Assembly (NCBI GenBank): GCA_964658305.1
Contig: OZ210885.1
Coordinates: 5,456,001-5,520,000 of the forward strand
Length of the DNA stretch: 64,000 nt
Reading direction: 5' to 3'
Origin: Leptogorgia sarmentosa
Lineage: Eukaryota
Below, one piece after another: positions 8,963 through 63,590 of the stretch (position 1 is the stretch's first letter; each line of letters opens with the position of its first letter). The position numbers were made by a program, and so were the translations under genes. The notes under the pieces were generated by a model. That model was not told where the DNA came from, searched no databases, and saw only the letters and a program-made list of their open reading frames with translations.

Positions 8963-10048
8963 TTAAAAAGGTCTTTCTCCAGTGTGCACTCGTTCGTGTG
9001 TCTTTAAGTGACTTGATTGACTAAATGTCTTACCACATTGTTCACACTGGAAAAGTTTTTCTCCAGTGTGCACTCGTTCGTGTGTCTTCAAGTTACCTGG
9101 GCGACTAAATGTCTTACCACATTGTTCACACTGGAAAGGTTTTTCTCCAGTGTGCACTCGTTCGTGTCTCTTTAAGTGACTTGATTGACTAAATGTCCTA
9201 CCACATTGTTCACACTGGAAAGGTTTTTCTCCAGTGTGCACTCGTTCGTGTGTCTTCAAGTTACTTGGGCGACTAAATGTCTTACCACATTGTTCACACT
9301 GGAAAGGTTTTTCTCCATTGTGTACTCGTTCGTGTGTTTGTAAGTTGATTTGCTGATTAAATGTCTTACCACATTGTTCACATTGGAAAAGTTTTTCTCC
9401 ATTGTGCACTCGTTCGTGTCTCTTCAAGTTACCTTTTTGACTAAATTTCCTGGCACATTGTTCACACTGGAAAGGTTTTTCTCCAGTGTGCACTCGTTCG
9501 TGTATCTTTAACCTGCTTGGGCAACTAAATTTCCTACCGCATTGTTCACACTGGAAAGGTTTTTCTCCAGTGTGCACTCGTTCGTGTGTCTTCAAGTTAC
9601 TTGGGTGATTAAATGTCTTACCACATTGTTCACACTGGAAAGGTTTTTCTCCAGTGTGCACTCGTTCGTGTGTCTGTAAGTTGATTTGCTGATTAAAAGC
9701 TTTAGCACATTGTTCACATTGGAAAGATCTTTCGCCAGTGTGAATTCGTCCGTGTGTCGCCAAATGACTTTTATCTTTGCATGCTTTACCACATTGTTGA
9801 GAGTCTGTTAAACGATAAAAGAATTAGGGGTGAACAGGAAAATAAAGGACAATACTGAATATTTACCATTTTGACTATTTGCTCAGTGGTTTTGTGAATG
9901 GTTGTTTGTATAGTGAAAAACGTTCATTAAACTTACAAATATAATGATCATCATCAGGAATTTCTTCTTCAGTGTCATTCGGACATTCAGTACGGATTGT
10001 AGATTTTCTCGTAATGTGTGAGGGGTGCGGGTGCGACACATCCCCCAT
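8963..10048 (-). CDS. PRDM9-like copy 1, PR/SET-deleted: SSXRD-like exon + 9 intact C2H2 fingers (~317 aa); exons 10048-9937, 9804-8963
   Basis: Exon [37 protein letters not shown] ends in a phase-1 GTAAGT donor. After the aacag acceptor it reads (Y)SQQCGKACKDKSHLATHGRIH, in frame with the finger ORF. TAA replaces the Gln codon of finger 10. Could be a pseudogene. Confidence 0.7.
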
Positions 10049-12322
10049 TATCACAATCTGAAAAAGGTAGAGTTAAGACTCTAAAATTGGCCGTTTCCAG
10101 CGATCTGCTCTCTAAATTCAAACGATTGAAAATTCAATCTATTTATCCGTAAAAACATTCTCGTTGGGATTGTTTTTACCGACCAAACATTTTCTATTGG
10201 AAATCAATCCTACTACATTTCAAAAATGCAGTTGCAAATTGAAACGCTAATATCTTGAGCAATACTTTACGAAAATACATGTATTATACGTCAAAATTTA
10301 AGTTGGGCTTTTATGAATTCAGCTACATTTATTTGAACGATGTAGTGCTTATGCTTTCCTCACTTTACTAAGGGGCTGTATACATGAGCCCGGTTTGGCT
10401 GGCCCGATTCAACGAGGCGCCCGGCTTCATACTAATTTCTTATTAATTATAACAATTCGACTTTACATGCAAACCGGGCTAGCCCACTTAGGTGGGTTCT
10501 CACTTGACTCAAACGGGGCGCCCGGTCAACCGGGATGAATTTTTTCTTTGTTTTTGTAAAAAAAAGCCGAAATTTTGTTTTTATGTTGAAAAAATCAAGA
10601 TGAAAAGGCCGAATTTTTGTACGGCTGAAACGGTTTCACAATCCCTATAAAAAAGCACAGTTTTTTTCAACCCGAAAGGTAAATCTAATTCCTTTTTTAT
10701 GCAAACAATTGAATAAAATATTTTCTAAAAAGACTACCTTTCAAGTTTCAAATGAGATTTTCGAGCTCTGAAGATCTGTGTCGCTTCATTTTTAACTAAC
10801 TAGAATAGATGTCGCTACTTCTTCAGTCGTCTTGAAGGCAGCAAATGATATCAGAATGTCAAAAAAGGATGAAAACCAAAAAATCCTTTGCAAAAACCAA
10901 AAATCCAAAATATTTTCGCAAAAAAAAAACTTTAGCAGGCTCAAAGTTAGTTGTGGTCAGTGGTGCTCCAATGAAAATTAGGAACCAGCTAGTGGCGTGG
11001 ATTTGAATGAATCCACGCCATAATTTTGGCTTCACTTTTTGTTGCCGTGCATTCTCTCCAGTAATTCTTTAAGCTCAGTGATTAAAGTCGTTTCGTATAC
11101 AGGCGGGCGGGAGACACATAATTTTTGGCGACCTAAAAATTTAGTGCTTCTTTGGTGCCGCACTAAATGGTTTATATCGTCCAGACGAATAATTCGTCTC
11201 CCGCCCGTCTTTATGCGAAACGATTTCAAGACATGTTAAAATGCTGGTTGGCCAAAGTCGTCCAGACACATTATTCGTCTGTAAAAACGGCCGTTACGTA
11301 AATATTCTCACTTCGTATCATCGTATCATGATAACAAGTTATAGTTTCAAAAATGGACGGGCATTCTATAATTTGACCTTTGGTTTATTTTGTGAAAAAT
11401 ACGTGCACTTGGACTACAGTCACTATATATATAGTCATGTTGCAATTGTTCCTAAATATAAATATACAAATACATCCAGACATCACAAAATGTAAACAAT
11501 ATAAACTGCGATATATAAACAATGCAGTCCGGAAATCATTTCGTTGATGAATGATAAGGCCTTAAAATATCGGCCAGCAGGCAGTCTGACATTCATAATG
11601 AGTCGGACATTTTAAAAATTATCTCCGATGGCCATGAGGCTAATTTTAAAATCATGTTGACAGTATAGGCTGATTACCACTTGCACGTGTTTTTAAATTC
11701 AGCACGTTCACGCACGTAAAGTATGAAATAACCGAATAACGACTGACAAATTACTGTGTAATGAAGCGAAAATAAAGACATATACGAGCCAAAATAATGT
11801 AGCAAACAAAGGCGTGGCAGAACGCTGTGCAACCGGACAGTAAGGCGCGTTTTAAACGTCGAATTTCTGTCGCATTGAATGCAATTCAAACAATAGAAAA
11901 TGAAATAACTTTGCTCATTAACTATGGTTTGAATTTTATTAGGCGCGACGAAAATTTGAGGTCTAAAATGGGCCTAAACAACATAGAAACATACCTGAAG
12001 AATGACGATTTTTGCTAGGTCTTTGAATATTCAAAATCATTCAGACATTCACAGATTCACTTCAGCTGGCCGAAAGAATCGCTGTCGGATAATGTTCGGA
12101 ATAGCTCGGAAATTAATTGGTCCTTCGAACTTCCAAAGTAATTTGAAACAATTAAAAAATTTTCCTCTTTTAGCTGAACATTCGAATTAAGAAAATAAAT
12201 TAGCACAGCTAGAAAAGACTAATAAATTTGGTAAAATAAATGCGAATTTGGACAGTATTGTATACGCGTATTCGCCAAATTCATCTCGAGTGCGCCGTAA
12301 AGACGTGATAATTGAGGATAAC

Positions 12323-13129: not shown

Positions 13130-13202
13130 GCCTCATTAACTCAGGGGTTAGAGCACTGGTCTTGTAAACTTGAGGTCCAGAGTTCAAATCTCTGATGGGG
13201 CT
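13130..13202 (+). pseudogene. tRNA-Thr(TGT)-derived pseudogene (unit 1)
   Basis: Paralogue of 21799-21871 with D-stem (ACTC) and anticodon-stem (ACTTG) mismatches. Confidence 0.65.
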
Positions 13203-15573: not shown

Positions 15574-17763
15574 CTAAATGGAGACTAAACGCTTTGCATT
15601 AGTTGCATGACCCCAGTGCCCTCGTTCATGCCTCTTCAAGTCACCTTTTTGACTAAATTTCCTGCCACATTGTTCACACTGGAAAGGTTTTTCTCCAGTG
15701 TGCACTCGTTCGTGTCTCTTCAAGTCACCTTTTTGACTAAATTTCCTGGCACATTGTTCACATTGGAAAGGTTTTTCTCCATTGTGAATTCCTTCGTGTG
15801 TCTTCAAGTTACTTGGGTGATTAAATGTCTTACCACATTGTTCACACTGGAAAGGTTTTTCTCCAGTGTGTACTCGTTCGTGTGTCTTTAAGCTACTTGA
15901 GCAACGAAATGTCTTACCGCATTGTTCACATTGGAAAGGTCTTTCTCCAGTGTGCACTCTTTCGTGTGTCTTCAAGTTACTTGGGCGACTACATGTCTTA
16001 CCACACTGTTCACACTGGAAAGGTTTTTCTCCAGTGTGCACTCGTTCGTGTGTCTTTAAGCTACTTGTGTGACGAAATGTCATACCACATTGTTCACACT
16101 GGAAAGGTTTTTCTCCATTGTGAATTCGTTCGTGTGTCTTCAAGTTACTTGGGTGATTAAATGTCTTACCACATTGTTCACACTGGAAAGGTTTTTCTCC
16201 AGTGTGCACTCGTTCGTGTGTTTGTAAGTTACTTGGGCGACTAAATGTCTTACCACATTGTTCACACTGGAAAGGTTTTTCTCCAGTGTGCACTCGTTCG
16301 TGTGACTTCAAGTGACTTCGTTGACTAAATGTTTTCCCACATTGTTCACACTGAAAAGGTTTTTCTCCAATGTGCACTCGTTGGTGTGACTTCAAGTGAC
16401 TTCGTTGACTAAATGTCTTACCACATTGTTCACACTGGAAAGGTTTTTCTCCAGTGTGCACTCGTTCGTGTCTCTTTAAGCTACTTGTGTGACGAAATGT
16501 CATACCACATTGTTCACACTGGAAAGGTTTTTCTCCAGTGTGTACTCGTTCGTGTCTCTTCAAGTCACCTTTTTGACTAAATTTCCTGGCACATTGTTCA
16601 CACAGGAAAGGTTTTTCTCCATTGTGAATTCCTTCGTGTGTCTTCAAGTTACTTCGGTGATTAAATGTCTTACCACATTGTTCACACTGGAAAGGTTTTT
16701 CTCCAGTGTGCACTCGTTCGTGTGTCTTCAAGTTACTTGGGTGATTAAATGTCTTACCGCATTGTTCACACTGGAAAAGTTTTTCTCCAGTGTGCACTCG
16801 TTCGTGAGTCTTTAAGCTACTTGAGCAACGAAATGTCTTACTGCATTGTTCACATTGGAAAGGTCTTTCTCCAGTGTGCACTCGTTCGTGTCTCTTGAAG
16901 TTACTTGGGTGACTAAATGTCTTACCACATTGTTCACACTGGAAAGGTTTTTCTCCAGTGTGCACTCGTTCGTGTCTCTTCAAGTTACTTGGGCGACTAA
17001 ATGTCTTACCACATTGTTCACACTGGAAAGGTTTTTCTCCAGTGTGCACTCGTTCGTGTGACTTTAAGCTACTTGTGTGACGAAATGTCTTACCACATTG
17101 TTCACACTGGAAAGGTTTTTCTCCAGTGTGCACTCGTTCGTGTGACTTTAAGCTACTTGTGTGACTAAATGTCTTACCACATTGTTCACACTGGAAAGGT
17201 TTTTCTCCAGTGTGCACTCGTTCGTGTCTCTTCAAGTTACTTGGGCGACTAAATGTCTTACCACATTGTTCACACTGGAAAGGTTTTTCTCCAATGTGCA
17301 CTCGTTCGTGTATCTTTAAGCTACTTGGGCAACTAAATGTCCTGCTGCATTGTTCACACTGGAAAGGTTTTTCTCCAGTGTGCACTCGTTCGTGTGTCTG
17401 TAAGTTGATTTGCTGATTAAAAGCCTTACCACATTGTTCACATTGGAAAGATCTTTCGCCAGTGTGAATTCGTCCGTATGTCGCCAAATGACTTTTATCT
17501 TTGCATGCTTTACCACATTGTTGAGAGTCTGTTAAACGATAAAAGAATTAGGGGTGAACAGGAAAATGAAGGACAATACTGAATATTTACCATTTTCAGT
17601 ATTTGCTCAGTGGTTTTGTGAATGGTTGTTTGTATAGTGCAAAACGTTCATTAAACTTACAAATATAATGATCATCATCAGGAATTTCTTCTTCAGTGTC
17701 ATTCGGACGTTCAGTACGGCTTGTAGATTTTCTCGCAATGTGCGGGTGCGACACATCCCCCAT
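15574..17763 (-). CDS. PRDM9-like copy 2, PR/SET-deleted: SSXRD-like exon + 22 C2H2 fingers (~685 aa); exons 17763-17661, 17528-15574
   Basis: Same splice sites and in-frame deletion junction as copy 1. Uninterrupted 637-aa finger ORF with 28-aa periodicity and TGEKPF-type linkers. Confidence 0.8.
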
Positions 17764-18959
17764 TATCACAATCTGAAAAAGGTAGAGTTAAGACTCTGAA
17801 ATGGCCGTTTCCAGCGATCTGCTCTCTAAATTCAAACGATTGAAAATTCAATCTATTTATCCGCGTAAAAACATTCTCTTTGGGATTGTTTTTACCGACC
17901 AAACTTTTTCTATTGGAAATCAATCCTACTACATTTTAAAAATGCAGTTGCAAATTGAAACGCTAATATCTTGAGCATGCAATACTTTACGAAAATACAT
18001 GTATTATACGTCAAAATTTAAGTTGGGCTTTTATGAATTCAGCTACATTTATTTGAACGATGTAGCGCTTATGCTTTCCTCACTTTACTAAGGGGCTGTT
18101 TACATGAGCCCGGTTTGGCTGGCCCGCTTCAACGAGGCGCCCGGCTTCATACTAATTTCTTATTAATTATAACAATTCGACTTTACATGCAAACCGGGCT
18201 AGCCCGCTTAGGTGGGATCTCACTCTACTCAAACGGGGCGCCCGGTCAACCGGGATGAATTTTTTCTTTGTTTTTGTAAAAAAAAGCCGAAATTTTGTTT
18301 TTATGTTGAAAAAATCAAGATGAAAAGGCCGAATTTTTGTACGGCTGAAACGGTTTCACAATCCCTATAAAAAAGCACAGTTTTTTTCAACCCGAAAGGT
18401 AAATCTAATTCCTTTTTTATGCAAAAAATTGAATAAAATATTTTCTAAAAAGAATACCTTTCAAGTTTCAAATGAGATTTTCGAGCTCTGAAGATCTGTG
18501 TCGCTTCATTTTTAACTAACTAGAATAGATGCCGCTACTTCTTCAGTCGTCTTGAAGGCAGCAAATGATATCAGAATGTCAAAAAAGGAAGAAAACCGAA
18601 AAATCCTTTGCAAAAACCAAAAATCCAAAATATTTTCGCCAAAACAAATCTTTAGCGGGCTCAAAGTTAGTTGTGGTCAGTGGTGCTCCAATGAAAATTA
18701 GGAACCAGCTAGTGGCGTGGATTTGAATGAATCCACGCCATAATTTTGGCTTCACTTTTTGTTGCCGTGCATTCTCTCCAGTAATTCTTTAAGCTCAGTG
18801 ATTAAAATCGTTTCGTATACAGGCGGGCGGGAGACACATAATTTTTGGCGAGCTAAAAATTTAGTGCTTCTTTGGAGACGCACTAAATGGTTTATATCGT
18901 CCAGACAAATATTTCGTCTCCCGCCCGTCTTTATGCGAAACGATTTCAAGACATCTTAA

Positions 18960-19204: not shown

Positions 19205-20302
19205 TTAAAATGCCGGTTGGCCAAAGTCGTCCAGACACATTATTCGTCTGTAAAAACGGCCGTTACGTAAATATTCTCACTTCGTATCATCGTATCATGA
19301 TAACAAGTCATAGTTTCAAAAATGAACGGGCATTCTATAATTTGACCATTGGTTTATTTTGTGAAAAATACGTGCACTTGGACTACAGTCACTATATATA
19401 TAGTCATGTTGCAATTGTTCCTAAATATAAATATACAAATACATCCAGACATCACAAAATGTAAACAATATAAACTGCGATATAAACAATGCAGTCCGGA
19501 AATCATTTCGTTGATGAATGATAAGGCCTTAAAATATCGACCAGCAGGCAGTCTGACATTCAGAATGAGTCGTACATTTTAAAAATTATCTCCGATGGCC
19601 ATGAGGCTAATTTTAAAATCATGTTGACAGTATAGGCTGATTTCCGCTTGCACGTGTTTTTAAATTCAGGACGTTCACGCACGTAAAGTATGAAATAACC
19701 GAATAACGACTGACAAATTACTGTGTAATGAAGCGAAAATAAAGACATATACGAGCCAAAATAATGTAGCGAACAAAGGCGTGGCAGAACGCTGTGCAAC
19801 CGGACAGTAAGGCGCGTTTTAGACGCCGAATTCTGTAGCTTTGAATGCAATTCAAACAATAGAAAATGAAATAACTTTGCTCATTAACTATGGTTTGAAT
19901 TTTATTCCGCGCGACGAAAATTTGACGTCTAAAATGGGCCTAAACAACATAGAAACATACCTGAAGGATGACGATTTTTGCTAGGTCTTTGAATATTCGA
20001 AAATCATTTAGACATTCACAGATTCACTTCACCTGGCCGAACGAATCGCTGTCGGATAATGTTCAGAATAGCTCGGAAATTAATTGGTCCTTCGAACTTC
20101 CAAAGGAATTTGAAACAATTAAAAAATTTTCCTCTTTTAGCTGAACATTCGAATTAAGAAAATAAATTAGCACAGCTAGAAAAGACTAATAAATTTGGTA
20201 AAATAAATGCGAATTTGGACAGTATTGTATACGCGTATTCGCCAATTATTATTTCATCTCGATCGAGTGCGCCGTAAAGACGTGATAATTGAGGATAATA
20301 AA

Positions 20303-20907: not shown

Positions 20908-20914
20908 AATTAAT

Positions 20915-26249: not shown

Positions 26250-29200
26250 CTAGTGCACTCGTTCGTGCTTCTTTAAGCTGCTTGATTGACTAAATGTCTT
26301 ACCACATTGTTCACACTGGAAAGGTTTTTCTCCAGTGTGCACTCGTTCGTGTGTCTTTAAGTGACTTGGTTGACTAAATGTCTTACCACATTGTTCACAC
26401 TGGAAAGGTTTTTCTCCAGTGTGCACTCGTTCGTGTGTCTTTAAGTGACTTGGTTGACTAAATGTCCTACCACATTGTTCACACTGGAAAGGTTTTTCTC
26501 CAGTGTGCACTCGTTCGTGTGTCTTTAAGTGGCTTGGTTGACTAAATGTCTTATCACATTGTTCACAGTGGAAAGGTTTTTCTCCAGTGTGCACTCGTTC
26601 GTGTCTCTTCAAGTTACATTTCAGAGTAAATTTCCTGCCACATTTTTCGCACTGGAAAGGTCTTTCTGGCATATGAAGTCGTTCATGTGTCTCTAAGTTG
26701 ATTTGCCGATTAAATGCCTTGCCACATTGTTGACATTGGAAAGGTTTTTCTCCAGTGTGAACTCGTTCGTGCTTCTTTAAGCTGCTTGATTGACTAAATG
26801 TCTTACCACATTGTTCACACTGGAAAGGTTTTTCTCCAGTGTGCACTCGTTCGTGTGTCTTTAAGTGACTTGGTTGACTAAATGTCCTACCACATTGTTC
26901 ACAGTGGAAAGGTTTTTCTCCAGTGTGCACTCGTTCGTGTCTCTTCAAGTTACATTTCAGACTAAATTTCCTGCCACATTTTTCACATTGGAAAGGTCTT
27001 TCTGGCATATGAAGTCGTTCATGTTTCTCTAAGTTGATTTGCCGATTAAATGCCTTACCGCATTGTTCACATTGGAAAGGTCTTTCTGGCATATGAAGTC
27101 GTTCATGTCTCTCTAAGTTGATTTGCCGATTAAATGCCTTGCCACATTGTTGACATTGGAAAGGTTTTTCTCCAGCGTGAACTCGTTCGTGTGTCTTTAA
27201 GTGACTTGGTTGATTAAATGTCCTACCACATTGTTCACACTGGAAAGGTTTTTCTCCAGTGTGCACTCGTTCGTGTGTCTTTAAGTGACTTGGTTGACTA
27301 AATGTCCTACCACATTGTTCACAGTGGAAAGGTTTTTCTCCAGTGTGCACTCGTTCGTGCTTCTTTAAGCTGCTTGATTGACTAAATGTCTTACCACATT
27401 GTTCACACTGGAAAGGTTTTTCTCCAGTGTGCACTCGTTCGTGTGTCTTTAAGTGACTTGGTTGACTAAATGTCCTACCACATTGTTCACACTGGAAAGG
27501 TTTTTCTCCAGTGTGAACTCGTTGGTGTGTCTGTAAGTGACTTGGTTGACTAAATGTCCTACCACATTGTTCACACAGAAAAGGTTTTTCTCCAGTGTGA
27601 ACTCGTTCGTGTGTCTTTAAGTTACTTGGGTGACTAAATGTCCTACCACATTGTTCACACAGAAAAGGTTTTTCTGCAGTGTGAACTCGTTCGTGTGTCT
27701 TTAAGTTACTTGGGTGATTAAATGTCTTACCACATTGTTCACATTGGAAAGGTCTTTCTCCAGTGTGAATTCGTCCGTGTGTCGCCAAATTACTTTTACT
27801 TTTGAATGGTTTACCACATTTCTGGCATAGAAAAGGCGTTTCCCCGCTGTTAACTCTACACCAATGTCTTTCCTCATTGTCAATTTGCTCGTGTTCGTGT
27901 TCCCTTCTACTAATATGGGAATTGAGGTAATCTTCGCTGGTGTATTTTCTACTACACTGAGGACATTCCCATAGTTCTGTGCACGTCAACAATGGACACC
28001 TTCGTACGTGAGATTCGAGGTAATTGAAATAGGTAAACATTCTTCCACAGTGTTTGCAAGTATGACCGCCTTCAAAAAGACAAAGTATGAATTAAATAAA
28101 ACAAGCATTGAATGGGATGTGGAGAGGAGATACGAATGTTTGTTTTGACACATTACTGGGTGTTTCCATTGTTATTTCCAACCAAGTTTTATTTTGGTTG
28201 AGAAGCGCGTGTTCAAAAACACAACGAATTTTTCCCGCCTAAACTCAAATGGTTTTTTATAACCAATAAGATCGCGTGTTCGCCATTTCAAACGGCAATT
28301 TTTGCACGGCAGATAACCGAAGGCTGAGGCAAATAACACAAACCGAGGCCTGAATAATTCCCCATATCCTACGAGGACCGAATTCAATAATTGTTTTATT
28401 ATTTATTTGTATATAGCGCTTGCAAAAACACGCAATTGCAAGGTACTGGAAATAGAACAATAATATAGTGTTCGCAAGATTGAATAAGCCAATCAGACTA
28501 CAAGAGAAAATGTTCTTATAGTTGTTGTACATTTCAAGGTCGCAGTCAAAGCAATTCAACATAGCTAAAGAAGGATTAAATCAAACAAATTTATTTCAAC
28601 TCAATATAAACGTTTGGAAGAACCTTTCCTTTGAGGAAGCCATTTGTATTTTCCACTATTTTTCCGCTTTTGGCATATGCAGAATAAATTAGTCGACGTC
28701 ATAATGTCGTATAATTTTCAATATACGACATAATTACGTCATAATGTCGTATATGAGGATTTATTGCACTGCTCTTAACCAATCAATGCAAAACTCTTGA
28801 ATTGTTTGAAATAAATAACAATATTATTTACTTGCCAACCTTATCATATTATACTAATGAATGGTACGTCATGCCCAAATAAGGTGTGTGACGTCATTTC
28901 CACATCCTGGTCGACGCCATATTGTGTTGGCCAAAGAACTCTATTCAATAATTCGACGACAAACGAGAATCCACAATTGGAAAACAACTCGCCTTTCGGG
29001 CTTGTGTTTCCACACATTTCTCGTTCTCCCAGACTTGCACTCGTGTTTACATAACTCGATGTAAACATGGAAAATGTTATATAAAACTTAAATAACGTCT
29101 AGTTTATACCTTCAAAGCGCTTTCCCTCTTGTTTTTCGTCCTCCTCGTATAGCGGTATGCCAAGGTCTTCTGCATATTCATCTCCATACCATACCAGGAG

Positions 29201-32200
29201 TTCACCATTTGCTCTGATCTCTTTATACACTCTGTAGTAAATATCTCCATGATATTGGAAGGCAACTATATTTTGCTCGTCCTCGCATCGCGAACAGTTT
29301 ACAAAACGCATCCAATTGCTTTGAGATGGATCTTTGCCGTCGATATAATACTGGATCTTTCCAAATTTTACGATCTGTTAATAAATCAGTTGGCAATTCA
29401 TGAATAATTTATGAAGAAACACAACAAAAATCATGAACATGAGGAAGCTTGTTGAAACCCGGCAGATTCACATAAAGTTTGATTATTTTCATAAACAATT
29501 ACTCATATGGTTTCCGTGTTTGGATGGCCTGATCCAAACACGCGAGAATGCTGCGAGAGTTGGTCTGTGGAAATTATATGAGAAATAGGAACCAGTGGCG
29601 TCAGCAACGGTAAAATCTGCCATGTTTCTGGCTTCACCCCTTTGAACCCAAAAAGTTGAGTGCACTCTCTCCAGTCTTTCTTTAGCTCAGTGTCTGCGAG
29701 CCCGTAAATCCAATATGGCGGCAAGAAAGAGGAATATATTAAACTATCATGAATTGGATTCTTTATCATCAGTTGTTTTATACAACATATATTTTTCTTT
29801 TAAATCTTTCCAGCTTTTCAGTACTTTATTTGTTATGTGCAGTGTAAACACAACCACTTCAGAATCCACACAAAGCTTTTTTATGTACTGTAAGCAATGA
29901 TTATCATCGACAACTACATCTTGCTTGTACCTCTGGTAATCATAATTATCTTTAAAAACGTCACACATAATACAGGCTCATTATACTTTTAAATAAACCA
30001 GAAAATATGGACTTCCCACAAGTTACAATTCATAATTCGCGCGAAGCTTTAATTCGCGCAAAATAATTCACCCGAAGTAAAACAACCACGGAGTTAGCCG
30101 CTGAAATTGCTGATTGTTTTTAGCATATCCCATCAGGCAATACTGGCCTAGATTCTGCAGGTCATGGCGATTATTTTGATACCAAACACTTGGCATTATG
30201 GCGTGCCTTTTTGTTACTATACTATTTAACAATTAGATTACGAGCTCGAGATTTCTATGAGGTGATAGTTGATGAGGGCGAAGCCCGAATCAACTATCAT
30301 CTCGTAGAAATCGAGAGCGAGTAATCTAATTGTTTTAGTAGAATCAGAGATCAAACATGAAAATATTGCAAAAAATAATTTAAAAACGCGTCTCAGAATA
30401 CATTTTCTTTAACGAAAATTCACATATTTTGCTACTCGCTATGTATCGAGGAATAGATATCGAGTAGAGTAGCCAATCAAATTGCAGCATTTGCAATAGT
30501 ATACGAGTATGATTCTACTAATGAATGTTACGTCATCAGTGCGTTGGGCTACTATATGCCATGACAGCAAAGTGGCCAAATTAAATGTTTCCACTGTTCA
30601 CAAGCTTAGTAATATGCCAGTTGTTGAGTCAGCAGCTATTTTAGCTTTGTTCATCTCAAATATTGACAATTTTTCTATTTGTATAAACAAAATGCTAGAG
30701 ATTTAGATAAAGAGATTTGCCGCGTAGGACGCAGGCGCACTATAGTACAAGATGGCCGAAGCTGGTGCATTTCCTCTATTTAGCTGCAAGTCCCACTCTG
30801 AAGCGTCGCCATATTGCATACATAAATATTTCATTCACCGCGAACACGTGCTCACTTCGAGAAGTATTAGAACGTGCGGTAATTCGCCAAACACGCGTGA
30901 AGTCTTTCATTAATACTTCGAGAAAAAGTATAATTTCCTTTTAATATCATGGTAGTCAATAATTTCAGTGCAATTTCAATATCAAACAAATCAAAACCCA
31001 TCGTAAATTGATACGAGAAACAAAAATTTTACTGTACTTTTACCTGTTTTTAAATTTACCGCTCGCATATCGCGGGCTCGAAACCGTGGTATTTGAAATT
31101 AAATTACACACTTGTGTAATTAATGTTTAATTCACACAGGTGTTGAAGCTTTTTAGCCAATCAGCGTCCAGGAAATTGACTACAGTTATATTATCAGAAA
31201 AACTCATGGTGGTATTGCAGAGACATTATAGATTTAAAGGAATATCATCGGACCTATTTTAAAAGAAAATGCTTGAAATAGGTTTTTTCAAACACGACGT
31301 TAAACGATTATACATGCACGAACATTTAGTTTAATGCAGTGGCGTCTAGGGGGCCATGGCCGCCCCTAGAATTTGAGGCTTGTCACGGAAATTTTTAGAA
31401 ATTTAATACTTGTCGGAAAAGCTAGTCGATCATCTTCTAAAAATTATTGCTTTTGTTTGGTGATATTAAGTCACGCTGGCGTCCACCTCGTATTTTTATA
31501 TCCACTTCTGAAACGATAATGAAATAGTCGTTTCCGGCGATTTAAAGGTCCTAAATGTTCAAAATTTTCCCGCGAGGGGCCAACCAGATAGTTAGCTTTC
31601 GTGGGCACATTTCTAAGACACTGATGACCATGCCCTTTACTCGTGCAAAATCCCGTAACACCCCCGCCCCATTGTCATGTACTGGTAAATGTAAAATTTT
31701 GGTTTCGGAAAAATCTGGTTTTGCCCCCCCCCCCCTTGGAAAAGCTCCCACGACGCCACTGTATTTAGGAAAAGTTTTATCACAAACGTTTTCGAAGTTA
31801 AATTTTCTGTCATTGAAACTGATAATTCTTATGTTGTTTAGCCACTTTAAAAAAAAAAATAAGTTGGGCTACTTCGTGTTCCACAAATATAGTTGCATCA
31901 TCAGTTATGAAAACGAGGGGTGCATGTACACATATATTTCTATTAGAGCTTTCAATTGTATTTACCTGCCACATGTACGATGTATCCTCTCCTTCAGTCT
32001 CCAGAACTTTCACCCCACGATATGGTCCAAAACGAGTATTAACCTCGATCTTTTTCTTAGTAAAGACTCCCAGACCAGCTCCGGGAATCCTTGAACGTCT
32101 CACACACAAACTTTTAGGTAGCGACGTGATTGCTTCAGGCATCTTCCCTCTTTCCACGACATTGTCGTCCATGATGTTGAATTTATGTGTTTCGCATTCG

Positions 32201-42900: not shown

Positions 42901-45900
42901 CCCACAAATTACAATTCATAATTCGCGCGAAGCTTTAATTGGCGCAAAATAATTCACCGGAAGTAAAACGGCCACGGAGTTAGCCGCTGAAATTGCTGAT
43001 TGTTTTTAGCATATCCCTTCAGGCAATACTGGCCTAGATTCTGCAGGTCATGGCGATTATTTTGATACCAAACACTTGGCATATGGCGTGCCTTTTTGTT
43101 ACTATACTATTGAATGTTAAACGTCATCGCGTGCGTTGGGCTACTATATGCCATGATAGCAAAGTGGTCAAATTAAATGTTTCCACTGTTCACAAGCTTA
43201 GTAATATGCCAGTTGTTGAGTCAGCAGCTATTTTAGCTTTGTTCATCTCAAATATTGACAATTTTTCTATTTGTATAAACAAAATGCTAGAGATTTAGAT
43301 AAAGAGATTTGCCGCGTAGGACGCAGGCGCACTATAGTACAAGATGGCCGAAGCTGGTGCATTTCCTCTATTTAGCTGCAAGTCCCACTCTGAAGCGTAG
43401 CCATATTGCATACATAAATATTTCATTCACCGCGAACACGTGCTCACTTCGAGAAGTATTAGCACGAGCGGTAATTCGCCAAACACGCGTGAAGTCTTTC
43501 ATTAATACATCGAGAACAAGTATAATTTCCTTTTAATATCATGGTAGTCAATAATTTCAGTGCAATTTCAATATCAAACAAATCAAAATCCATCGTAAAT
43601 TGATACGAGAAACAAAAATTTTACTGTACTTTTACCTGTTTTTAAATTTACCGCTCGCATATCGCGGGCTGGAAACCGTGGTATTTGAAATTAAATTACA
43701 CACTTGTGTAATTAATGTTTAATTCACACAGGTGTTGAAACTTTCTAGCCAATCAGCGTCCAGGAAATTGACTACAGTTATATTATCAGAAAAACTCATG
43801 GTGGTATTGCAGAGACATTATAGATGTAAAGGAATATCATTTTTTCAAACACGACGTTAAACGATTATACATGCACGAACATTTAGTTTAATGCAGTGGC
43901 GTCTAGGGGGCCATGGCCGCCCCTACAATTTGAGGCTTGTCACGGAAATTTTTAGAAATTTAATACTTGTCGGAAAAACTAGTCGATCATCTTCTAAAAA
44001 TTATTGCTTTTGTTTGGTGATATTAAGTCACGCTGGCGTCCACCTCGTATTTTTATATCCACTTCTCAAACAATAATGAAATAGTCGTTTCCGGCGATTT
44101 AAAGGTCCTAAATGTTCAAAATTTTCCCGCGAGGGGCCAACCAGATAGTTAGCTTTCGTGGGCACATTTCTAAGACACTGATGACCATGGCCTTTACTCG
44201 TGCAAAATACCGTAACACCCCCGGCCCATTGTCATGTACTGGTAAATGTAAAATTTTGGTTTCGAAAAAATCTGGTTTTGCACCCCCCTCCCCCCCTTTG
44301 GAACAGCTCCCACGACGCCACTGTTTTTAGGAAAAGTTTTATCACAAACGTTTTCGAAGTTAAATTTTCTGTCATTGAAACTGATCATTCTTATGTTGTT
44401 TAGCTACTTTTTAAAAAAAAATAAGTTGGGCTACTTCGTGTTCCACAAATATAGTTGCATCATCAGTTATGAAAACGAGGGGTGCATGTACACATATATT
44501 TCTATTACAGATTTCAGTTGTATATACCTGCCACATGTACGATGTATCCTCTCCTTCAGTCTCCAGAACTTTCACCCCACGATATGGTCCAAAACGAGTA
44601 TTAACCTCGATCTTTTTCTTAGTAAAAACTCCCAGACCAGCTCCGGGAATCCTTGAACGTCTCACACACAAACTTTTAGGTAGCGACGTGATTGCTTCAG
44701 GCATCTTCCCTCTTTCCACGACATTGTCGTCCATGATGTTGAATTTATGTGTTTCGCATTCGCCATAATAAACATCATCACATTGTTCACAGTCTGTTAA
44801 ACGATTAAAGAATTAGGAGTGAATAGGAAAATGAAGGACAATAAACAATTATTGGATGAGGCTGAGCATGATATCAAGAATTATTCAGACCGAGGTCAAT
44901 GTTATCTGCCAAAGCGAAGCTGAGGCGGATAACATTGACCGAGGTCTGAATAATTCTTGATATCATGCGAAAGCCGAATCCAATAATTGTTTTATTATAC
45001 ATTTAAAAGAGTGCTCACTTTCATTCAGCGAAGCAAATCTCTGCAGGTCATTGTTTGTTTGTTTGTTTTTTCGCGCGCTTTTAGCTTCAAGCTTTTGACA
45101 GCGCTGGGGCTTGGGCACGAGAGAGTCCAATAATTTTTTTTTTGGATGCAAGTTCGATCCAAAAAAATAATTATTGGACGCTGATGGCGTCATCGGCGGA
45201 AAATACGTAATAAATACCGAATACTGAGAATTAGCCGGTGCTTTCTGACCAATCAGGAACGAGAATAAATTTTAAATGTATAATAATATACGATTATTGG
45301 ACGAGGCTGAGCAAAATATCGTGATTTATCTGTGGCGAGCAGATCAATTATTTGCCGATGGCAAAGGCCAATAATTAAAAAAAATCACGATATTTTGCGA
45401 CTGCCGAGTTCAAAAATTGTTTTATTATTCAGTTTATTATTTACGATCGTTTGTCACTCGCTTCGGCGTAAAATTTCCCGACCACGGCAAAGTTTACTTT
45501 TGGACGCCAATAAGTCCTTTGAATTATAAGTACTCTTGAAAAAAAGTTAAAGCAGATTCGGTTGCTTTCTTGGTGTTTCCGGGGTCTTTTTCGTGTGGAA
45601 GATCTAATCCAGTAATCGGACGCAAACAAATTTAAGTCAACTGCGCATGAGCAAGCCATTATTTGAAGCTGAGCGAGTTTTGAACTAAATGCGCATGCTC
45701 AGTAAACTGTTTGCACCAATTATTTGCAGTTGAAGTGACATTTGTAGGCAGTATTTGCAGGTAAATTAACCAATCGAAATTGAGTAAATAATAAACTGAA
45801 TAATAATACTGAATATTTACCATTTTAACTATTTGCTCAGTGGTTTTGGGAATGGTTGTTTGTATAATGAAGAAAGTTCACTAAACTTACAAATATAATG

Positions 45901-45993
45901 ATCATCATCATCAATTTCTTCTTCAGTGTAATTCGGACGTTCAGTACTCCTTGAAGATCTTCTCGGAATGTGCGGGTGCGACACATCCCCCAT
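39993..45993 (-). CDS. PRDM9: PRDM9-like copy 4 with SSXRD-like exon, zinc knuckle, PR/SET and 13-finger array (~670 aa); exons 45993-45891, 44793-44528, 42260-41993, 41368-39993
   Basis: Same exon structure and intact PR/SET motifs as copy 3. A 1-nt deletion near 40051 frameshifts only the last finger. Confidence 0.85.
44843..45287 (+). mobile_element. Second related TIR-less hairpin element stacked at the same intron-1 site, copy 4 only
   Basis: Starts AAACAATTATTGGATGAGGCTGAGC and ends ATAATAAT. Inverted arms GCATGATATCAAGAATTATTCAGACC / GGTCTGAATAATTCTTGATATCATGC. Confidence 0.75.
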
Positions 45994-46205
45994 TATCACA
46001 ATCTGAAAAAGGTAGAGTTAAGACTCTAAAATGGCCGTTTCCAGCGATCTGCTCCCTAAATTCAAACGATTGAAAATTCAATCTATTTATCCGTAAAAAC
46101 ATTTTTTTCCTATTGTTTTTATGGTCAAAGCTTTTTCTATTGAAAATCAATTTTGCGCGAGATTGAAGGAAAAATCAATCTAAAAGGAGTTACTTTTCAA
46201 TCAAA

Positions 46206-47567: not shown

Positions 47568-50130
47568 TATGTATTTACTAGCTTTCGCATTTATAGTTTG
47601 TTTTCGCCGTATTCGACTCTTCGTCGCCTCGCGGTATTGCCATTCATTTACTAATGTACTTCTCATTTAATAATATATCATCTAATATACTTCCAAAAGA
47701 ATAATTTACTACAATTAAACTCAGCCAGTTTCTCCTTGTTGTTTTGTAATGCGACGATATGACTCAACACTGGTGTGAAGAGTCGACGGCTTCACTATAA
47801 AGCTTGGATTGTTTGTTGACACGACGTACAGGGGACTTTTTGAAGTGGGAGGGGGGGGGGCGAATATCTGATTATCCCCCCCCCCCCACCCACTGTTTAT
47901 CATGTTTAAACACATTGTTTTTTGGTAATCTTAAAACCCCATGCTTGTATGCTATACATCGTGAATTGTGAAGTACAATAAACAATCTGAGATCAGAAGA
48001 AAACTATTCGGAGCCTTCGAATAGTTCTGCGAATGAAATCCTAATTGGAAAGGCAATAAACGGACCTCAGCCACGCACACACGTTCAAATTAGCTTTTGT
48101 TTTTATTGATCATTTTATGTACAATTGATATAATTGTTAAAGAAATCATTTCATATTTTCATTTGCGATTCAAATCTTTATTGTTTTATTAAAAATATAC
48201 GTATTCGAATAATACACATTCGACATCGACAAAAAATTGTCGTATAATTTAGGCAAGAAATTCGGCGGAATTATTTTAGTAAAAATCGTTCCCAGAACGC
48301 TGAAAATGGTATTTGTGCATGATGTTTCAAATTTCAAAATTTTTCGGGGAAGATTGCCCCGAGACCCTTCTAGAAAGGGGCACGTTTCATTACAATTTTA
48401 CAACAGACAGATTTTTGTTCCCCCCCATAGGCGTACGAAGCGGGGGGGACAAGGGCGGCAACTGCCCCCCCTCCCAAAATTCAAATAATGTCAACAATCG
48501 TCCAGTCGTTCACCTGAACGAGCGTACCAAGAAAGTGGAGTTAGGACTCGCTCGGCGCCAACCACGGTGGTGCCTCGTGTCATTCACTACCCTCAAATTT
48601 GGCCAAAGGTCTCTCTGCACCCTCCCTGAATAAATGTAACCCGTAAGCTTATGGTCCCCCCCCCCCACTTTTTGGAACGGATTGACGCCCTTGCCTGATA
48701 CTGTGAATAAGCTGGATATTTTATTACGACGCATATGATATGTATTATTTAAAAATAACTTAAAGGTCAGAGGTCAGAGATTTATCTGATTTGCGTTTAA
48801 CGCGACTGCTGCCAGTTGCTTTCTGACAATAAAATAGTGATTATTATCATATCACGTCAACACTGATTTTAGCTGTATTTCTTCTTAGAAACTTTGCACT
48901 ATCCTTCGATCCCTATAGTTATACTACAAACGTGTAATGCGTCTGGACGACCTTGGGCAACGGGCATTTTAAGATTAAAATCGTTTCGTATACAGGCGGG
49001 CGGGAGACATAATTTTAGGCGACCTAAAAATTTAGAGCTTCTTTGGAGACGCACTAAATGGTTTATATCGTCCAGACAAATAATTCGTCTGTAAAAACGG
49101 CCGTTACGTAAATATTCTCACTCCGTATCATCGTATCACGATAACAAGTCATAGTTTCAAAAATGGACGGGCATTCTATAATTTGACCTTGGTTTATTTT
49201 GTGAAAAATACGTGCACTTGGACTACAGTCACTATATATATAGTCATGTTGCAATTGTTCCTAAATATAAATATACAAATACATCCAGACATCAGAAAAT
49301 GTAAACAATATAAACTGCGATATAAACAATGCAGTGCGGAAATCATTTCGTTGATGAATGATAAGGCCTTAAAATATCGACCAGCAGGCAGTCTGACATT
49401 CAGAATGAGTCGGACATTTTAAAAATTATCTCCGATGGCCATGAGGCTAATTTTGAAATCATGTTGACAGTACAGGCTGATTTCCGCTTGCACGTGTTTT
49501 TAAATTAAGCACGTTCACGCACGTAAAGTATGAAATAACCGAATAACGACTGACAAATTACTGTGTAATGAAGCGAAAATAAAGACATATACGAGCCAAA
49601 ACAATGTAGCAAACAAAGGCGTCGCAGAACGCTGTGCAACCGGACAGTAAGGCGCGTTTTAGACGTCGAATTTCTGTCGCATTGAACGCAATTCAAACAA
49701 TAGAAAATGAAATAACTTTGCTCATTAACTATGGTTTGAATTTTATTAGGCGCGACGAAAATTTGACGTCTAAAATGGGCCTAAACAACATAGAAACATA
49801 CCTGAAGGATGACGATTTTTGCTAGGTCTTTGAATATTCGAAAATCATTCAGACATTCACAGATTCACTTCACCTGGCCGAACGAATCGCTGTCGGATAA
49901 TGTTCGGAATAGCTCGGAAATTAATTGTCCTTTGAACTTCCAAAGGAATTTGAAACAATTAAAAAATTTTCCTCTTTTAGCTGAACATTCGAATTAAGAA
50001 AATAAATTAGCACAGCTAGAAAAGACTAATAAATTTGGTAAAATAAATGCGAATTTGGACAGTTATTGTATACGCGTATTCGCCAATTTCATCTCGAGTG
50101 CGCCGTAAAGACGTGATAATTGAGAATAAT

Positions 50131-53881: not shown

Positions 53882-55159
53882 CTAAATGGAGACTAAACGC
53901 TTTGCATTAGTTGCATGACCCCAGTGCCCTCGTTCATGCCTCTTCAAGTCACCTTTTTGACTAAATTTCCTGGCACATTGTTCACACTGGAAAGGTTTTT
54001 CTCCAGTGTGCACTCGTTCGTGTCTCTTCAAGTCACCTTTTTGACTAAATTTCCTGGCACATTGTTCACACTGGAAAGGTTTTTCTCCATTGAGAGTTCC
54101 TTCGTGTGTCTTCAAGTTACTTGGGTGATTAAATGTCTTACCACATTGTTCACACTGGAAAGGTTTTTCTCCAGTGTGCACTCGTTCGTGTGTCTTTAAG
54201 CTACTTGTGTGACGAAATGTCATACCACATTGTTCACATTGGAAAGGTCTTTCTCCAGTGTGCACTCGCTCGTGTGTCTTCAAGTTACTTGGGCGACTAA
54301 ATGTCTTACCACATTGTTCACACTGGAAAGGTTTTTCTCCAGTGTGCACTCGTTCGTGTCTCTTCAAGTTACTTGGGCGACTAAATGTCTTACCACATTG
54401 TTCACACTGGAAAGGTTTTTCTCTAGTGTGTACTCGTTCGTGTGTTTGTAAGTTGATTTGCTGATTAAATGTCTTACCACCTTGTTCACATTGGAAAGGT
54501 TTTTCTCCAGTGTGTACTCGTTCGTGTCTCTTCAAGTTACATTTCAGACTAAATTTCCTGCCACATTTTTCACACTGGAAAGGTTTTTCTCCAGTGTGCA
54601 CTCGTTCGTGTGTCTTCAAGTTACTTGGGCGACTAAATGTCTTACCACATTGTTCACACTGGAAAGGTTTTTCTCCAGTGTGCACTCGTTCGTGTCTCTT
54701 TAAGCTACTTGGGCAACTAAATGTCCTGCTGCATTGTTCACACTGGAAAGGTTTTTCTCCAGTGTGCACTCGTTCGTGTGTCTGTAAGTTGATTTGCTGA
54801 TTAAAAGCCTTACCACATTGTTCACATTGGAAAGATCTTTCGCCTGTGTGAATTCGTCCGTGTGTCGCCAAATGACTTTTATCTTTGCATGCCTTACCAC
54901 ATTGTTGAGAGTCTGTTAAACGATAAAAGAATTAGGGGTGAAAAGGAAAATGAAGGACAATTATACTGAATATTTACCATTTTGACTATTTGCTCAGTGG
55001 TTTTGTGAATGGTTGTTTGTATAGTGAAAAACGTTCATTAAACTTACAAATATAATGATCATCATCAGGAATTTCTTCTTCAGTGTCATTCGGACATTCA
55101 GTACGGCTTGTAGATTTTCTCGTAATGTGTGAGGGGAGCGGGTGCGACACATCCCCCAT
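53882..55159 (-). CDS. PRDM9-like copy 5, PR/SET-deleted: SSXRD-like exon + 11 finger repeats, two with lost Zn ligands (~380 aa); exons 55159-55048, 54912-53882
   Basis: Same deletion junction as copies 1 and 2. Fingers CEQG... (Cys>Gly) and HEGTL (His>Leu) are degenerate. Confidence 0.72.
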
Positions 55160-57426
55160 TATCACAATCTGAAAAAGGTAGAGTTAAGACTCTAAAATGG
55201 CCGTTTCCAGCGATCTGCTCTCTAAATTCAAACGATTGAAAATTCAATCTATTTATCCGTAAAAACATTCTCTTTCGTATTGTTTTTACCGACCAAACTT
55301 TTTCTATTGGAAATCAATCCTACTACATTTTAAAAATGCAGTTGCAAATTGAAACGCTAATATCTTGAGCAATACTTTACGAAAATACATGTATTATACG
55401 TCAAAATTTAAGTTGGGCTTTTATGAATTCAGCTACATTTATTTGAACGATGTAGCGCTTATGCTTTCCTCACTTAACTAAGGGGCTGTTTACATGAGCC
55501 CGGTTTGGCTGGCCCGCTTCAACGAGGCGCCCGGCTTCATACTAATTTCTTATTAATTATAACAATTCGACTTTACATGCAAACCGGGCTAGCCCGCTTA
55601 GGTGGGATCTCGCTTGACTCAAACGGGGCGCCCGCTCAACCGGGATGAATTTTTTTTTTGTTTTTGTAAAAAAAAGCCGAAATTTTGTTTTTATGTTGAA
55701 AAAATCATGATGAAAAGGCCGAATTTTTGTACGGCTGAAACGGTTTCACAATCCTTATAAAAAAGCACAGTTTTTTTCAACCAGAAAGGTAAATCTAATT
55801 CCTTTTTTATGCAAAAAATAAAATATTTTCTAAAAAGACTACCTTTCAAGTTTAAAATGAGATTTTCGAGCTCTGAAGATCTGTGTCGGTTCATTTTTAA
55901 CTAACTAGAATAGATGTCGCTACTTCTTCAGTCGTCTTGAAGGCAGCAAATGATATCAGAATGTCAAAAAAGGAAGAAAACCGAAAAATCCTTTGCAAAA
56001 ACCAAAAATCCAAAATATTTTCGCAAAAACAAATCTTTAGCGGGCTCAAAGTTAGTTGTGGTCAGTGGTGCTCCAATGAAAATTAGGAACCAGCTAGTGG
56101 CGTGGATTTGAATGAATCCACGCCACAATTTTGGCTTCACTTTTTGTTGCCGTGCATTCTCTCCAGTATTTCTTTAAGCTCAGTGATTAAAATCGTTTCG
56201 AATAAAGGCGGGCGGGAGAGACATAATTTTAGGCGACCCAAAAATTTAGTGCTTCTTTGGTGCCGCACTAAATGGTTTATATCGTCCAGACGAATAATTC
56301 GTCTCCCGCCCGTCTTTATGCGAAACGATTTCAAGACATCTTAAAATGCCGGTTGGCCAAAGTCGTCCAGACGCATTATTCGTCTGTAAAAACGGCCGTT
56401 ACGTAAATATTCTCACTTCGTATCATCGTATCATGATAACAAGTCATAGTTTCAAAAATGAACGGGCATTCTATAATTTGACCTTTGGTTTATTTTGTGA
56501 AAAATACGTGCACTTGCACTACAGTCACTATATATATAGTCATGTTGCAATTGTTCCTAAATATAAATATACAAATACATCCAGACATCACAAAATGTAA
56601 ACAATATAAACTGCGATATAAACAATGCAGTCCGGAAATCATTTCGTTGATGAATGACAAGGCCTTAAAATATCGGCCAGCAGGCAGTCTGACATTCAGA
56701 ATGAGTCGGACATTTTAAAAATTATCTCCGATGGCCATGAGGCTAATTTTAAAATCATGTTGACAGTATAGGCTGATTTCCCCTTGCACGTGTTTTTAAA
56801 TTCAGCACGTTCACGCACGTAAAGTATGAAATAAGCGAATAACGACTGACAAATTACTGTGTAATGAAGCGAAAATAAAGACATATACGAGCCAAAATAA
56901 TGTAGCGAACAAAGGCGTGGCAGAACGCTGTGCAACCGGACAGTAAGGCGCGTTTTAGACGTCGAATTTCTGTCGCATTGAATGCAATTCAAACAATAGA
57001 AAATGAAATAACTTTGCTCATTAACTATGGTTTGAATTTTATTAGGCGCGACGAAAATTTGACGTCTAAAATGGGCCTAAACAACATAGAAACATACCTG
57101 AAGGATGACGATTTTTGCTAGGTCTTTGAATATTCGAAAATCATTCAGACATTCACAGATTCACTTCACCTGGCCGAACGAATCGCTGTCGGATAATGTT
57201 CGGAATAGCTCGGTAATTAATTGGTCCTTCGAATTTCCAAAGGAATTTGAAACAATTAAAAAATTTTCCTCTTTCAGCTGAACATTCGAATTAAGAAAAT
57301 AAATTTGCACAGCTAGAAAAGACTAATAAATTTGGTAAAATAAATGCGAATTTGGACAGTATTGTATACGCGTATTCGCCAATTTCATCTCGAGTGCGCC
57401 GTAAAGACGTGATAATTGAGGATAAT

Positions 57427-61941: not shown

Positions 61942-63590
61942 TCACATTGTTGACATTAGGAAGATCTTTCGCCTCCGTTGAGACCAAATGGAGACTAAAC
62001 GCTTTGCATTAGTTGCATGACCCCAGTGCCCTCGTTCATGCCTCTTCAAGTCACCTTTTTGACTAAATTTCCTGCCACATTGTTCACACTGGAAAGGTTT
62101 TTCTCCAGTGTGAATTCCTTCGTGTGTCTTCAAGTTACTTGGGTGATTAAATGTCTTACCACATTGTTCACACTGGAAAGGTTTTTCTCCAGTGTGCACT
62201 CGTTCGTGCGTCTTCAAGTGACTTCGTTGACTAAATGTCTTACCACATTGTTCACAATGGAAAGGTTTTTCTCCAGTGTGTACTCGTTTGTGTCTCTTCA
62301 AGTCACCTTTTTGACTAAATGTCCTGGCACATTGTTCACACTGGAAAGGTTTTTCTCCATTGTGAATTCCTTCGTGTGTCTTCAAGTTACTTGGGTGATT
62401 AAATGTCTTACCACATTGTTCACACTGGAAAGGTTTTTCTCCAGTGTGAACTCGTTCGTGTGTCTTCAAGTTACTTGGGCGACTAAATGTCCTACCACAT
62501 TGTTCACAGTGGAAAGGTTTTTCTCCAGTGTGCACTCGTTCGTGTGTCTTTAAGCTACTTGAGCAACGAAATGTCATACCGCATTTTTCACATTGGAAAG
62601 GTTTTTCTGCAGTATGCACTCGTTCGTGTCTCTTTAAGCTACTTGAGCAACGAAATGTCTTACCGCATTGTTCACATTGGAAAGGTCTTTCTCCAGTGTG
62701 TACTCTTTCGTGTTTCTTTAAGTCACCTTTCTGGCTAAATGTCTTACCACATTGTTCACACTGGAAAGGTTTTTCTCCATTGTGCACTCGTTCATGCCTC
62801 TTCAAGTCACCTTTTTGACAAAATTTCCTGCAACATTGTTCACACTGGAAAGGTTTTTCTCCAGTGTGCACGCGTTCGTGTGTCTTTAAGCTACTTGGGG
62901 AACGAAATGTCTTACCACATTGTTCACATTGGAAAGGTCTTTCTCCAGTGTGCACTCGTTCGTGTGTCTTTAAGTGACTTGGTTGACTAAATGTCTTACC
63001 ACATTGCTCACACTGGAAAGGCTTTTCTCCAGTGTGCACTCGTTCGTGTCTCTTCAAGTTACTTGGGCGACTAAATGTCTTACCACATTGTTCACACTGG
63101 AAAGGTTTTTCTCCAGTGTGCACTCGTTCGTGTGTCTGTAAGTTGATTTGCTGATTAAATGCCTTACCGCATTGTTCACATTGGAAAGGTCTTTCTGGAA
63201 GATGAAGTCGTTCATGTTTCTCTAAGTTGATTTGCTGATTAAATGCCTTGCCACATTGTTCACATTGGAAAGATCTTTCGCCAGTGTGAATTCGTCCGTG
63301 TTTCGCCAAATTACTTTTACTTTTGAATGGCTTACCACATTGCTGGCATTGAAATGGCGTTTCCCCGCTGTTAACTCTACACCAATGTCTTTCCTCATTG
63401 TCAATTTGCTCGTGTTCGTGTTCCCTCCTACTAATATGGGAATTAAGGTAATCTTCGCTGGTGTATTTTCTACTACACTGAGGACATTCCCATAGTTCTG
63501 TGCACGTCAACAATGGACACCTTCGTACGTGAGATTCCAGGTAATTGAAATAGGTAAACATTCTTCCACAGTGTTTGCAAGTATGACCGC
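61942..63590 (-). CDS. PRDM9: Last exon of PRDM9-like copy 6 (post-SET fingers + 16-finger array); upstream exons outside window
   Basis: Acceptor ttgaag| at 63591/63590, then (G)[24 protein letters not shown] as in copy 3. The TAG of copies 2/5 is TGG here, extending the C-terminus by 14 aa. Confidence 0.8.

Follow-up and report, generated by a model that had tools for sequence, protein, structure and literature searches.

A tandem cluster of KRAB-less PRDM9-like genes with and without the PR/SET domain in the octocoral Leptogorgia sarmentosa

A cluster of PRDM9-like zinc-finger genes occupies most of a 64,000-nucleotide stretch of DNA from Leptogorgia sarmentosa (GenBank assembly GCA_964658305.1, contig OZ210885.1, positions 5,456,001 to 5,520,000), referred to here as the window. 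Six C2H2 finger arrays were found in a six-frame scan of the 64 kb, all on the minus strand, and self-comparison revealed head-to-tail repeat units from about 6660 to the window end, with a stop-to-stop spacing of 6.6 to 13.9 kb and non-coding flanks 94–98% identical. Copies 3 and 4 have open predicted models of four coding exons each (817 and 670 amino acids) with GT–AG introns. They encode an SSXRD-like motif, a zinc knuckle, a PR/SET domain divided between two exons (Pfam PF21549, E 6.6e-9 and 2.5e-30) and fingers. Copies 1, 2 and 5 have open predicted models of two coding exons (317, 685 and 380 amino acids) that lack PR/SET. Of copy 6, the window contains a last exon of SET type that encodes two post-SET fingers; the 5′ part of the gene lies past base 64000. 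There are 9, 22, 19, 13, 11 (2 broken) and 16 array fingers in copies 1 to 6, and each SET-less copy carries one degenerate hybrid first finger on top of these. First introns range from 1.1 to 3.8 kb. An earlier interpretation made from the letters of the window (the sequence-only reading) had described six same-strand finger genes amplified locally, with copies 1, 2 and 5 lacking PR/SET and copy 6 ending in a SET-type exon, and had proposed a Pfam scan of the spliced models; the layout, the real mixture of the two types and the PF21549 matches in copies 3 and 4 all bear it out. The exons, predicted in all copies from splice consensus and homology, are as follows.

8963..9804, minus strand: copy 1 last exon, with SET-less junction, degenerate hybrid finger and 9 fingers; a nonsense codon ends it before a truncated further finger
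9937..10057, minus strand: copy 1 SSXRD-like exon, ATG at 10048
11995..12103, minus strand: copy 1 putative non-coding upstream exon, predicted only, with conserved CAG|GTATGT donor and undefined 5′ end
15574..17528, minus strand: copy 2 last exon, with SET-less junction, microhomology at 17514-17520, hybrid finger and 22 fingers
17661..17772, minus strand: copy 2 SSXRD-like exon, ATG at 17763
19961..20070, minus strand: copy 2 putative non-coding upstream exon, predicted only, 5′ end approximate
26250..28069, minus strand: copy 3 last exon, with two post-SET fingers, spacer and 19-finger array
29110..29374, minus strand: copy 3 second PR/SET exon, with the tyrosines equivalent to human Y341 and Y357
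31966..32231, minus strand: copy 3 zinc-knuckle and first PR/SET exon, with the tyrosine equivalent to human Y276; the opening codons correspond to the 5′ side of the breakpoint in SET-less copies
32899..33010, minus strand: copy 3 SSXRD-like exon, ATG at 33001
34122..34231, minus strand: copy 3 putative non-coding upstream exon, predicted only
39993..41368, minus strand: copy 4 last exon, with two post-SET fingers, 13-finger array and frameshifted tail past the last finger
41993..42260, minus strand: copy 4 second PR/SET exon
44528..44793, minus strand: copy 4 knuckle and first PR/SET exon
45891..46002, minus strand: copy 4 SSXRD-like exon, ATG at 45993
49802..49911, minus strand: copy 4 putative non-coding upstream exon, predicted only
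53882..54912, minus strand: copy 5 last exon, with SET-less junction, hybrid finger and 11 fingers, two of which have lost a zinc ligand
55048..55168, minus strand: copy 5 SSXRD-like exon, ATG at 55159
57098..57207, minus strand: copy 5 putative non-coding upstream exon, predicted only
61942..63590, minus strand: copy 6 SET-type last exon, with two post-SET fingers and 16-finger array; upstream exons outside the window

Several lines of evidence place the SET domain of copies 3 and 4 with PRDM9, as the sequence-only reading had supposed. First, in a ranking against PDB structures of 11 PRDM types, PRDM9 was the best match for both SET exons (93 bits, compared to 68 for PRDM14, 56 for PRDM1 and at most 56 for the others); the first SET exon, including the knuckle, aligned with PRDM9 structures over the whole exon (45 bits). 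Second, both copies have tyrosine at all three catalytic positions, Y276, Y341 and Y357 (human numbering taken from papers; spacing 65 and 16 in the human chain). Third, the proteins closest to the second SET exon come from Paramuricea (82% identity), Dendronephthya (76%) and Xenia (68%). In a SET tree of 46 rows (44 of 144 stored proteins plus the two copies), the octocoral PRDM9s of these three genera were the sister group of copies 3 and 4 with support 100/99, and the grouping was kept with support 99 when 16 long or redundant rows were dropped. Approximately unbiased tests rejected a grouping with PRDM14 (p 0.003) and narrowly rejected one with PRDM1 (p 0.049). The proposed PR/SET phylogeny, with PRDM1 and PRDM14 as its outgroups, thus groups the window SET with PRDM9.

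The 5′ ends of the genes show an SSXRD-like exon and no KRAB. Exon 2 of the window copies matches the SSXRD-like motif of cnidarian PRDM9s, and a tblastn search with 13 cnidarian PRDM9 N-termini matched the five SSXRD exons alone (best E 1e-9). This exon ends at the DDHYI intron position, as do many single-exon cnidarian matches. Pfam SSXRD matched neither the window exons nor four cnidarian PRDM9s, and Pfam KRAB gave no match even in cnidarian PRDM9s; hence a custom profile with controls was built from six cnidarian PRDM9 N-termini. Of 12 control proteins it recovered 8 (E 2e-28 to 1e-5) and missed 4, all of them Xenia models; it found no KRAB-like head in the six frames of the window (best E 2.4). 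KRAB is thus missing from all five visible 5′ ends, that of copy 6 lying outside the window. By eye, the cnidarian PRDM9 head resembles the sea-urchin-type PRDM9 head; this likeness, together with Rudler et al. (bioRxiv 10.64898/2026.09.07.749791), argues that the cnidarian head is the ancestral KRAB. Copies 3 and 4, with SSXRD, SET and fingers and without KRAB, are therefore XSZ forms in the code of Rudler et al. They had been called complete, which holds for an open reading frame with PR/SET and fails for the head. The possibility that the putative upstream exon is a remnant of KRAB was dismissed, since its frame, continued into exon 2, runs into a stop with no later ATG.

Copies 1, 2 and 5 share an identical breakpoint that removes 257 codons in frame, or about 4.4 kb in copy-3 coordinates. 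The deleted part comprises the knuckle, the SET domain and the post-SET fingers, and the result is an SSXRD-finger form. At the SET-less junction, the splice acceptor of the knuckle exon is intact; after it come AC TCT CAA CAA TGT G and the first array finger. In copies 3 and 4 the knuckle exon opens with AC TGT GAA CAA TGT G (codons for CEQC), and the first array finger carries (C/A)AA TGT GGT (CxxC codons). The junction therefore lies in a microhomology of 6–7 nucleotides, AATGTG being common to both sides and CAATGTG when copy 6 is used. Because one breakpoint is common to three copies, a single deletion event followed by duplication is indicated. Around exon 2, identity is 91–93% between SET and SET-less types compared to 96–98% within type, and 16 of 301 columns there separate the two types versus 3 of 974 upstream, which points to homogenisation of the upstream region without loss of the two types. 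The hybrid first finger (9745-9804, 17469-17528 and 54853-54912, minus strand) has lost its first cysteine and gained one at the conserved phenylalanine position, giving the pattern C-x3-C-x8-H-x3-H in copies 1 and 5, with tyrosine for the first histidine in copy 2. All these changes are replacements, and the pattern may be fortuitous or may form a new zinc site.

Purifying selection acts on the SET copies. Between copies 3 and 4, 10 of 771 exon sites differ, against 83 of 3138 intron sites (Fisher p 0.025); 4 of the codon changes are replacements and 6 are silent (p 0.013). Private framework changes in SET-type arrays number 4 replacement to 4 silent (p 0.048). In the SSXRD motif, SET-less copies differ from SET copies by 6–7 replacement and 0 silent codon changes, including a conserved tyrosine changed to aspartate. 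Other changes in the SET-less copies are the lost first cysteine of the hybrid finger, two lost zinc ligands in copy 5 and the terminal stop in copy 1. The expected count of stops and frameshifts was not taken as proof of selection, since array turnover resets finger age.

Part of the array could be an assembly artefact of stacked haplotypes (for example, copies 4 and 6 as alleles), or most copies could be recently dead pseudogenes. In favour of this, a 4.1-kb block is 98.2% identical between the copy 3/4 boundary and the copy 5/6 boundary, and copies 4 and 6 have a three-finger run in common. However, even in a diploid, three copies of each type cannot be fitted into fewer than two SET-less and two SET-type loci. 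No two arrays are the same, and intron insertions differ. The copy 2 junction is also bridged by short-read contigs of two DNA runs, X1 at 17445-17708 (4 other letters) and X2 at 17460-17578 (1 other letter). The run contigs were compared over copy 2, where runs X1 to X3 behave as DNA because introns are covered and there are no splice joints; the three runs come from one sample of one study, which may be the source of the window and so is not independent of it. With purifying selection on the SET copies added, the artefact or pseudogene explanation appears improbable.

All arrays draw on one finger pool. Each is unique, with a longest exact match between copies of 62–130 nucleotides. Finger DNA likeness is 0.82–0.86 between copies and 0.81–0.86 within copies, and of 72 distinct finger cores, 6 recur unchanged in more than one copy. 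Finger types are common to both kinds of copy: for 31 of 42 SET-less fingers, the −1/+3/+6 code recurs among the SET-type arrays, and some finger DNA is identical between the two. The longest finger run common to a SET-less and a SET array is 2. The four contact residues hold 0.31–0.44 of the diversity in window arrays and 0.37–1.0 in 15 homologs, among which Dendronephthya PRDM9 gave 1.0, equal to its published value. The proportion of replacement differences at contact codons (pN, 0.27–0.40) is close to that of silent differences at all codons (pS, 0.23–0.37), and the finger framework is constrained (replacement change 0.04–0.07).

These observations bear on the proposal that the cluster helps to place meiotic hotspots, in which case KRAB would come from a full-length PRDM9 upstream of copy 6 or at another locus and the array would widen the motif repertoire. 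The intact catalytic tyrosines would suit such a role, as would contact positions holding two to three times their share of diversity (0.31–0.44 versus 4/28) and the several full-length paralogues that coexist in other octocorals (Rudler et al.). Hotspot control has been tied to KRAB plus SSXRD, KRAB-less PRDM9s have been argued to be non-directing, and tandem truncated copies are known (Baker et al. PMC5519329; Raynaud et al. PMC11703093). KRAB is absent from 5/5 visible 5′ ends, replacement change is not in excess at contact sites, and the fingers are old and poorly homogenised. We give this proposal little credence. With KRAB missing from every visible copy and little finger diversity, a hotspot-type system is not supported, and hotspot control by the cluster is unlikely. 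Of the locally amplifying PRDM9 system that the sequence-only reading had proposed, the ancestry and the amplification are supported and the hotspot type is not.

The sequence-only reading had suggested that SET-less copies could act as competitors, partners or nascent repressors. A proposal of this kind is that they might be expressed as functional PR-minus partners that damp or retarget methylation through overlapping sites or finger co-assembly, the cluster being otherwise as in our preferred explanation. Three open SET-less copies have been retained and re-duplicated, the shared finger codes and identical finger DNA noted above would give overlapping sites, and PRDM9 multimerises through its fingers alone (PMC6643046). 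There are precedents in other PRDMs, namely PR-minus isoforms and the SET-less paralogue ZNF683 (PMC7662092), and an independent SET-less PRDM9 gene model exists in Hydra. On the other hand, with a longest shared run of 2 fingers, long motifs must differ; constraint on the SET-less arrays is not significant, and their SSXRD motif is eroding. PRDM9 is also reported to prefer self-assembly and to show no trans-complementation in vivo (PMC6643046). We regard such a partnership as a tentative and rather doubtful proposal.

The cluster is best read as a birth-and-death array of a KRAB-less PRDM9 derivative. In the explanation that we favour, though with only modest confidence, an in-frame deletion among tandem KRAB-less PRDM9 derivatives, probably guided by the short sequence that both ends share, made a SET-less lineage. 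The SET copies are predicted to be sequence-targeted histone methyltransferases, likely chromatin-regulating rather than hotspot-placing, and by-products under weak constraint are the likely status of the SET-less copies. First, a PRDM9 duplicate would have lost its 5′ KRAB exons, so that translation would now start at the ATG in the SSXRD exon; the order of events is our reconstruction. Second, the CEQC codons of the knuckle share AATGTG or CAATGTG with the CxxC codons of the first finger, and a deletion between them, presumably by a repair process, would have kept both the acceptor and the frame. Third, both types would have been re-duplicated, their upstream regions homogenised and the finger pool reshuffled; the mosaic identity suggests unequal crossing-over and conversion. 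Finally, the SET copies would retain methyltransferase activity under selection, and probably act on histones at sites chosen by their fingers, apart from the hotspot pathway. The SET-less copies, if expressed, would bind overlapping short motifs, with no measurable constraint.

Several points weigh against this explanation. Private framework changes in the SET-less arrays (5 replacement to 3 silent, versus a neutral 4.2:1; p 0.18) lean to constraint, and the SET-less frames and splice sites are all still open despite about 8% divergence from the SET type near exon 2. The window contact-site diversity of 0.31–0.44 falls at the low end of the range of 0.29–1.0 published for full-length cnidarian PRDM9 (Rudler et al.). 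Copy 6, or sequence beyond base 64000, could be full length. PRDM1 and PRDM14 were the only outgroups of the tree, the other PRDMs being compared by PDB ranking only, and the window SET branches beside the three named octocoral genera rather than among them, so that it could be an old octocoral paralogue. The exon models themselves are predictions.

Tandem and truncated PRDM9 copies are already known in cnidarians. Rudler et al. described 109 homologs in 28 species, so the assumption that PRDM9 is single or low copy, on which the sequence-only reading had leaned, fails for this phylum. They reported several full-length copies in Xenia, Paramuricea and Corallium, together with XSZ forms and same-scaffold duplicates, and their Table S5 may list related octocoral loci. 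Like these genes, the window copies have an SSXRD-SET-finger order without KRAB, catalytic tyrosines, low contact-site diversity, recent same-scaffold octocoral duplicates and birth-and-death turnover. They differ in that three internally deleted copies are interleaved with SET copies. In the available parts of the preprint, SET was required of candidates and the variants were 5′ or 3′ exon truncations only. No report of an internally deleted, SET-less PRDM9 paralogue was found in the literature searched, most subscription papers lying outside the search. What is new here is the internal SET deletion beside its parental form.

Compared to canonical PRDM9 (mammals, salmonids and Dendronephthya XP_028394808), the window has the same SET, three tyrosines, knuckle, SSXRD-like motif and 84-bp single-exon finger minisatellite, but its copies have no visible KRAB and their fingers are far less homogenised. 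Salmonid PRDM9-alpha a/b genes (PMC11703093) are likewise tandem duplicates with gene conversion, many of them truncated or KRAB-less, whereas the window has at least six units, three of which carry the same amplified SET-deleting breakpoint. In PR-minus forms (the RIZ2 and EVI1 isoforms, and ZNF683/Hobit from PRDM1), too, a SET-bearing PRDM has a counterpart with fingers only whose DNA specificity overlaps its own. The window SET-less copies are instead separate tandem genes from a genomic deletion, predicted from DNA alone, with shared finger codes.

KRAB zinc-finger genes have been proposed to arise from PRDM9, and the SSXRD of SSX has repressive potential (PMC4592553, PMC8835667). A resemblance to the birth of these genes had been suggested for the cluster. 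The proposed PRDM9 descent by SET loss and the duplication-driven expansion of tetrapod KRAB zinc-finger genes and coelacanth aKRAB-ZNFs are shared by the window, whose SET-less copies have tandem-clustered fingers and no SET, but no joining of KRAB to fingers occurred and the window holds no KRAB. The pattern is in fact reversed, with KRAB lost and the SSXRD-like motif, which has no known co-repressor link, kept; the resemblance is only partial.

A second SET-less case was found in Hydra vulgaris, where XP_047143624-7 (annotated as "zinc finger protein 260/813") join an SSXRD-like motif to 4 fingers without SET and are 78–84% identical to Hydra PRDM9 over common parts; their contig has the same length as the one that carries Hydra PRDM9. 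Compared to the window SET-less copies, the Hydra gene model keeps a KRAB-like head (isoform X2), has another breakpoint and has only 4 fingers, and its SET loss appears independent of the window deletion. The 147 distinct proteins matching the SSXRD profile, drawn from the best 120 of 153 matches plus 61 of 61 of a second set, comprised 124 with neither SET nor fingers (mostly single-exon fragments), 11 with SET only, 11 with SET and fingers and 1 with fingers and no SET, that of Hydra. SET-less proteins thus made up 1 of the 12 finger-bearing matches tallied. Finger-only PRDM9 derivatives may be undercounted in invertebrates because SET-anchored surveys miss them.

The descent of KRAB zinc-finger genes from PRDM9 by SET loss has so far only been inferred (PMC4592553). 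In the window, a SET loss is resolved to the base, with the parental form adjoining and both forms open, so that the mechanism and fate of such births become directly testable. Judging from these gene models, PRDM9 could in one step yield genes predicted to encode DNA-binding-only zinc-finger proteins. A more speculative extension, which we advance hesitantly, is that the resemblance of the knuckle CxxC codons to finger codons is a built-in weak point of PRDM9, that the octocoral array is an amplified, working writer/blocker system, that Hydra shows recurrence and that the cluster replays the founding step of KRAB zinc-finger genes. If this is true, one deletion that keeps the frame is enough to strip PRDM9 of its enzyme, and what remains is a DNA-binding gene already equipped for splicing.

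Other features of the repeat unit and its flanks were noted. Genes for tRNA-Thr(TGT) lie at 13130-13202, 22892-22965, 35350-35422, 50783-50859 and 58324-58400 on the plus strand, within the repeat unit, upstream of the finger genes and on the opposite strand to them; they were amplified with the array, and there are further degenerate tRNA matches. A 26-bp tandem repeat with a palindromic core (5.5–9.4 copies) occurs at 12322-12503, 20943-21183, 34481-34723, 50159-50299 and 57455-57697. In four units it lies about 330–360 bases upstream of the donor of the putative first exon, and in copy 2 the distance is 980 bases; it could be a length polymorphism close to the promoter. The first intron of copy 2 contains very high-copy interspersed repeats (17743-19446), where summed contig depth is far over that of the flanks in all three runs. 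A two-exon gene flanks the array on the plus strand (4693-4980 and about 5836-6054), with weak matches to beta/gamma-crystallin (E 0.073 and 0.013, below the Pfam cut-off). Outside the array, a 108-bp tandem repeat of two copies lies at 1122-1337.

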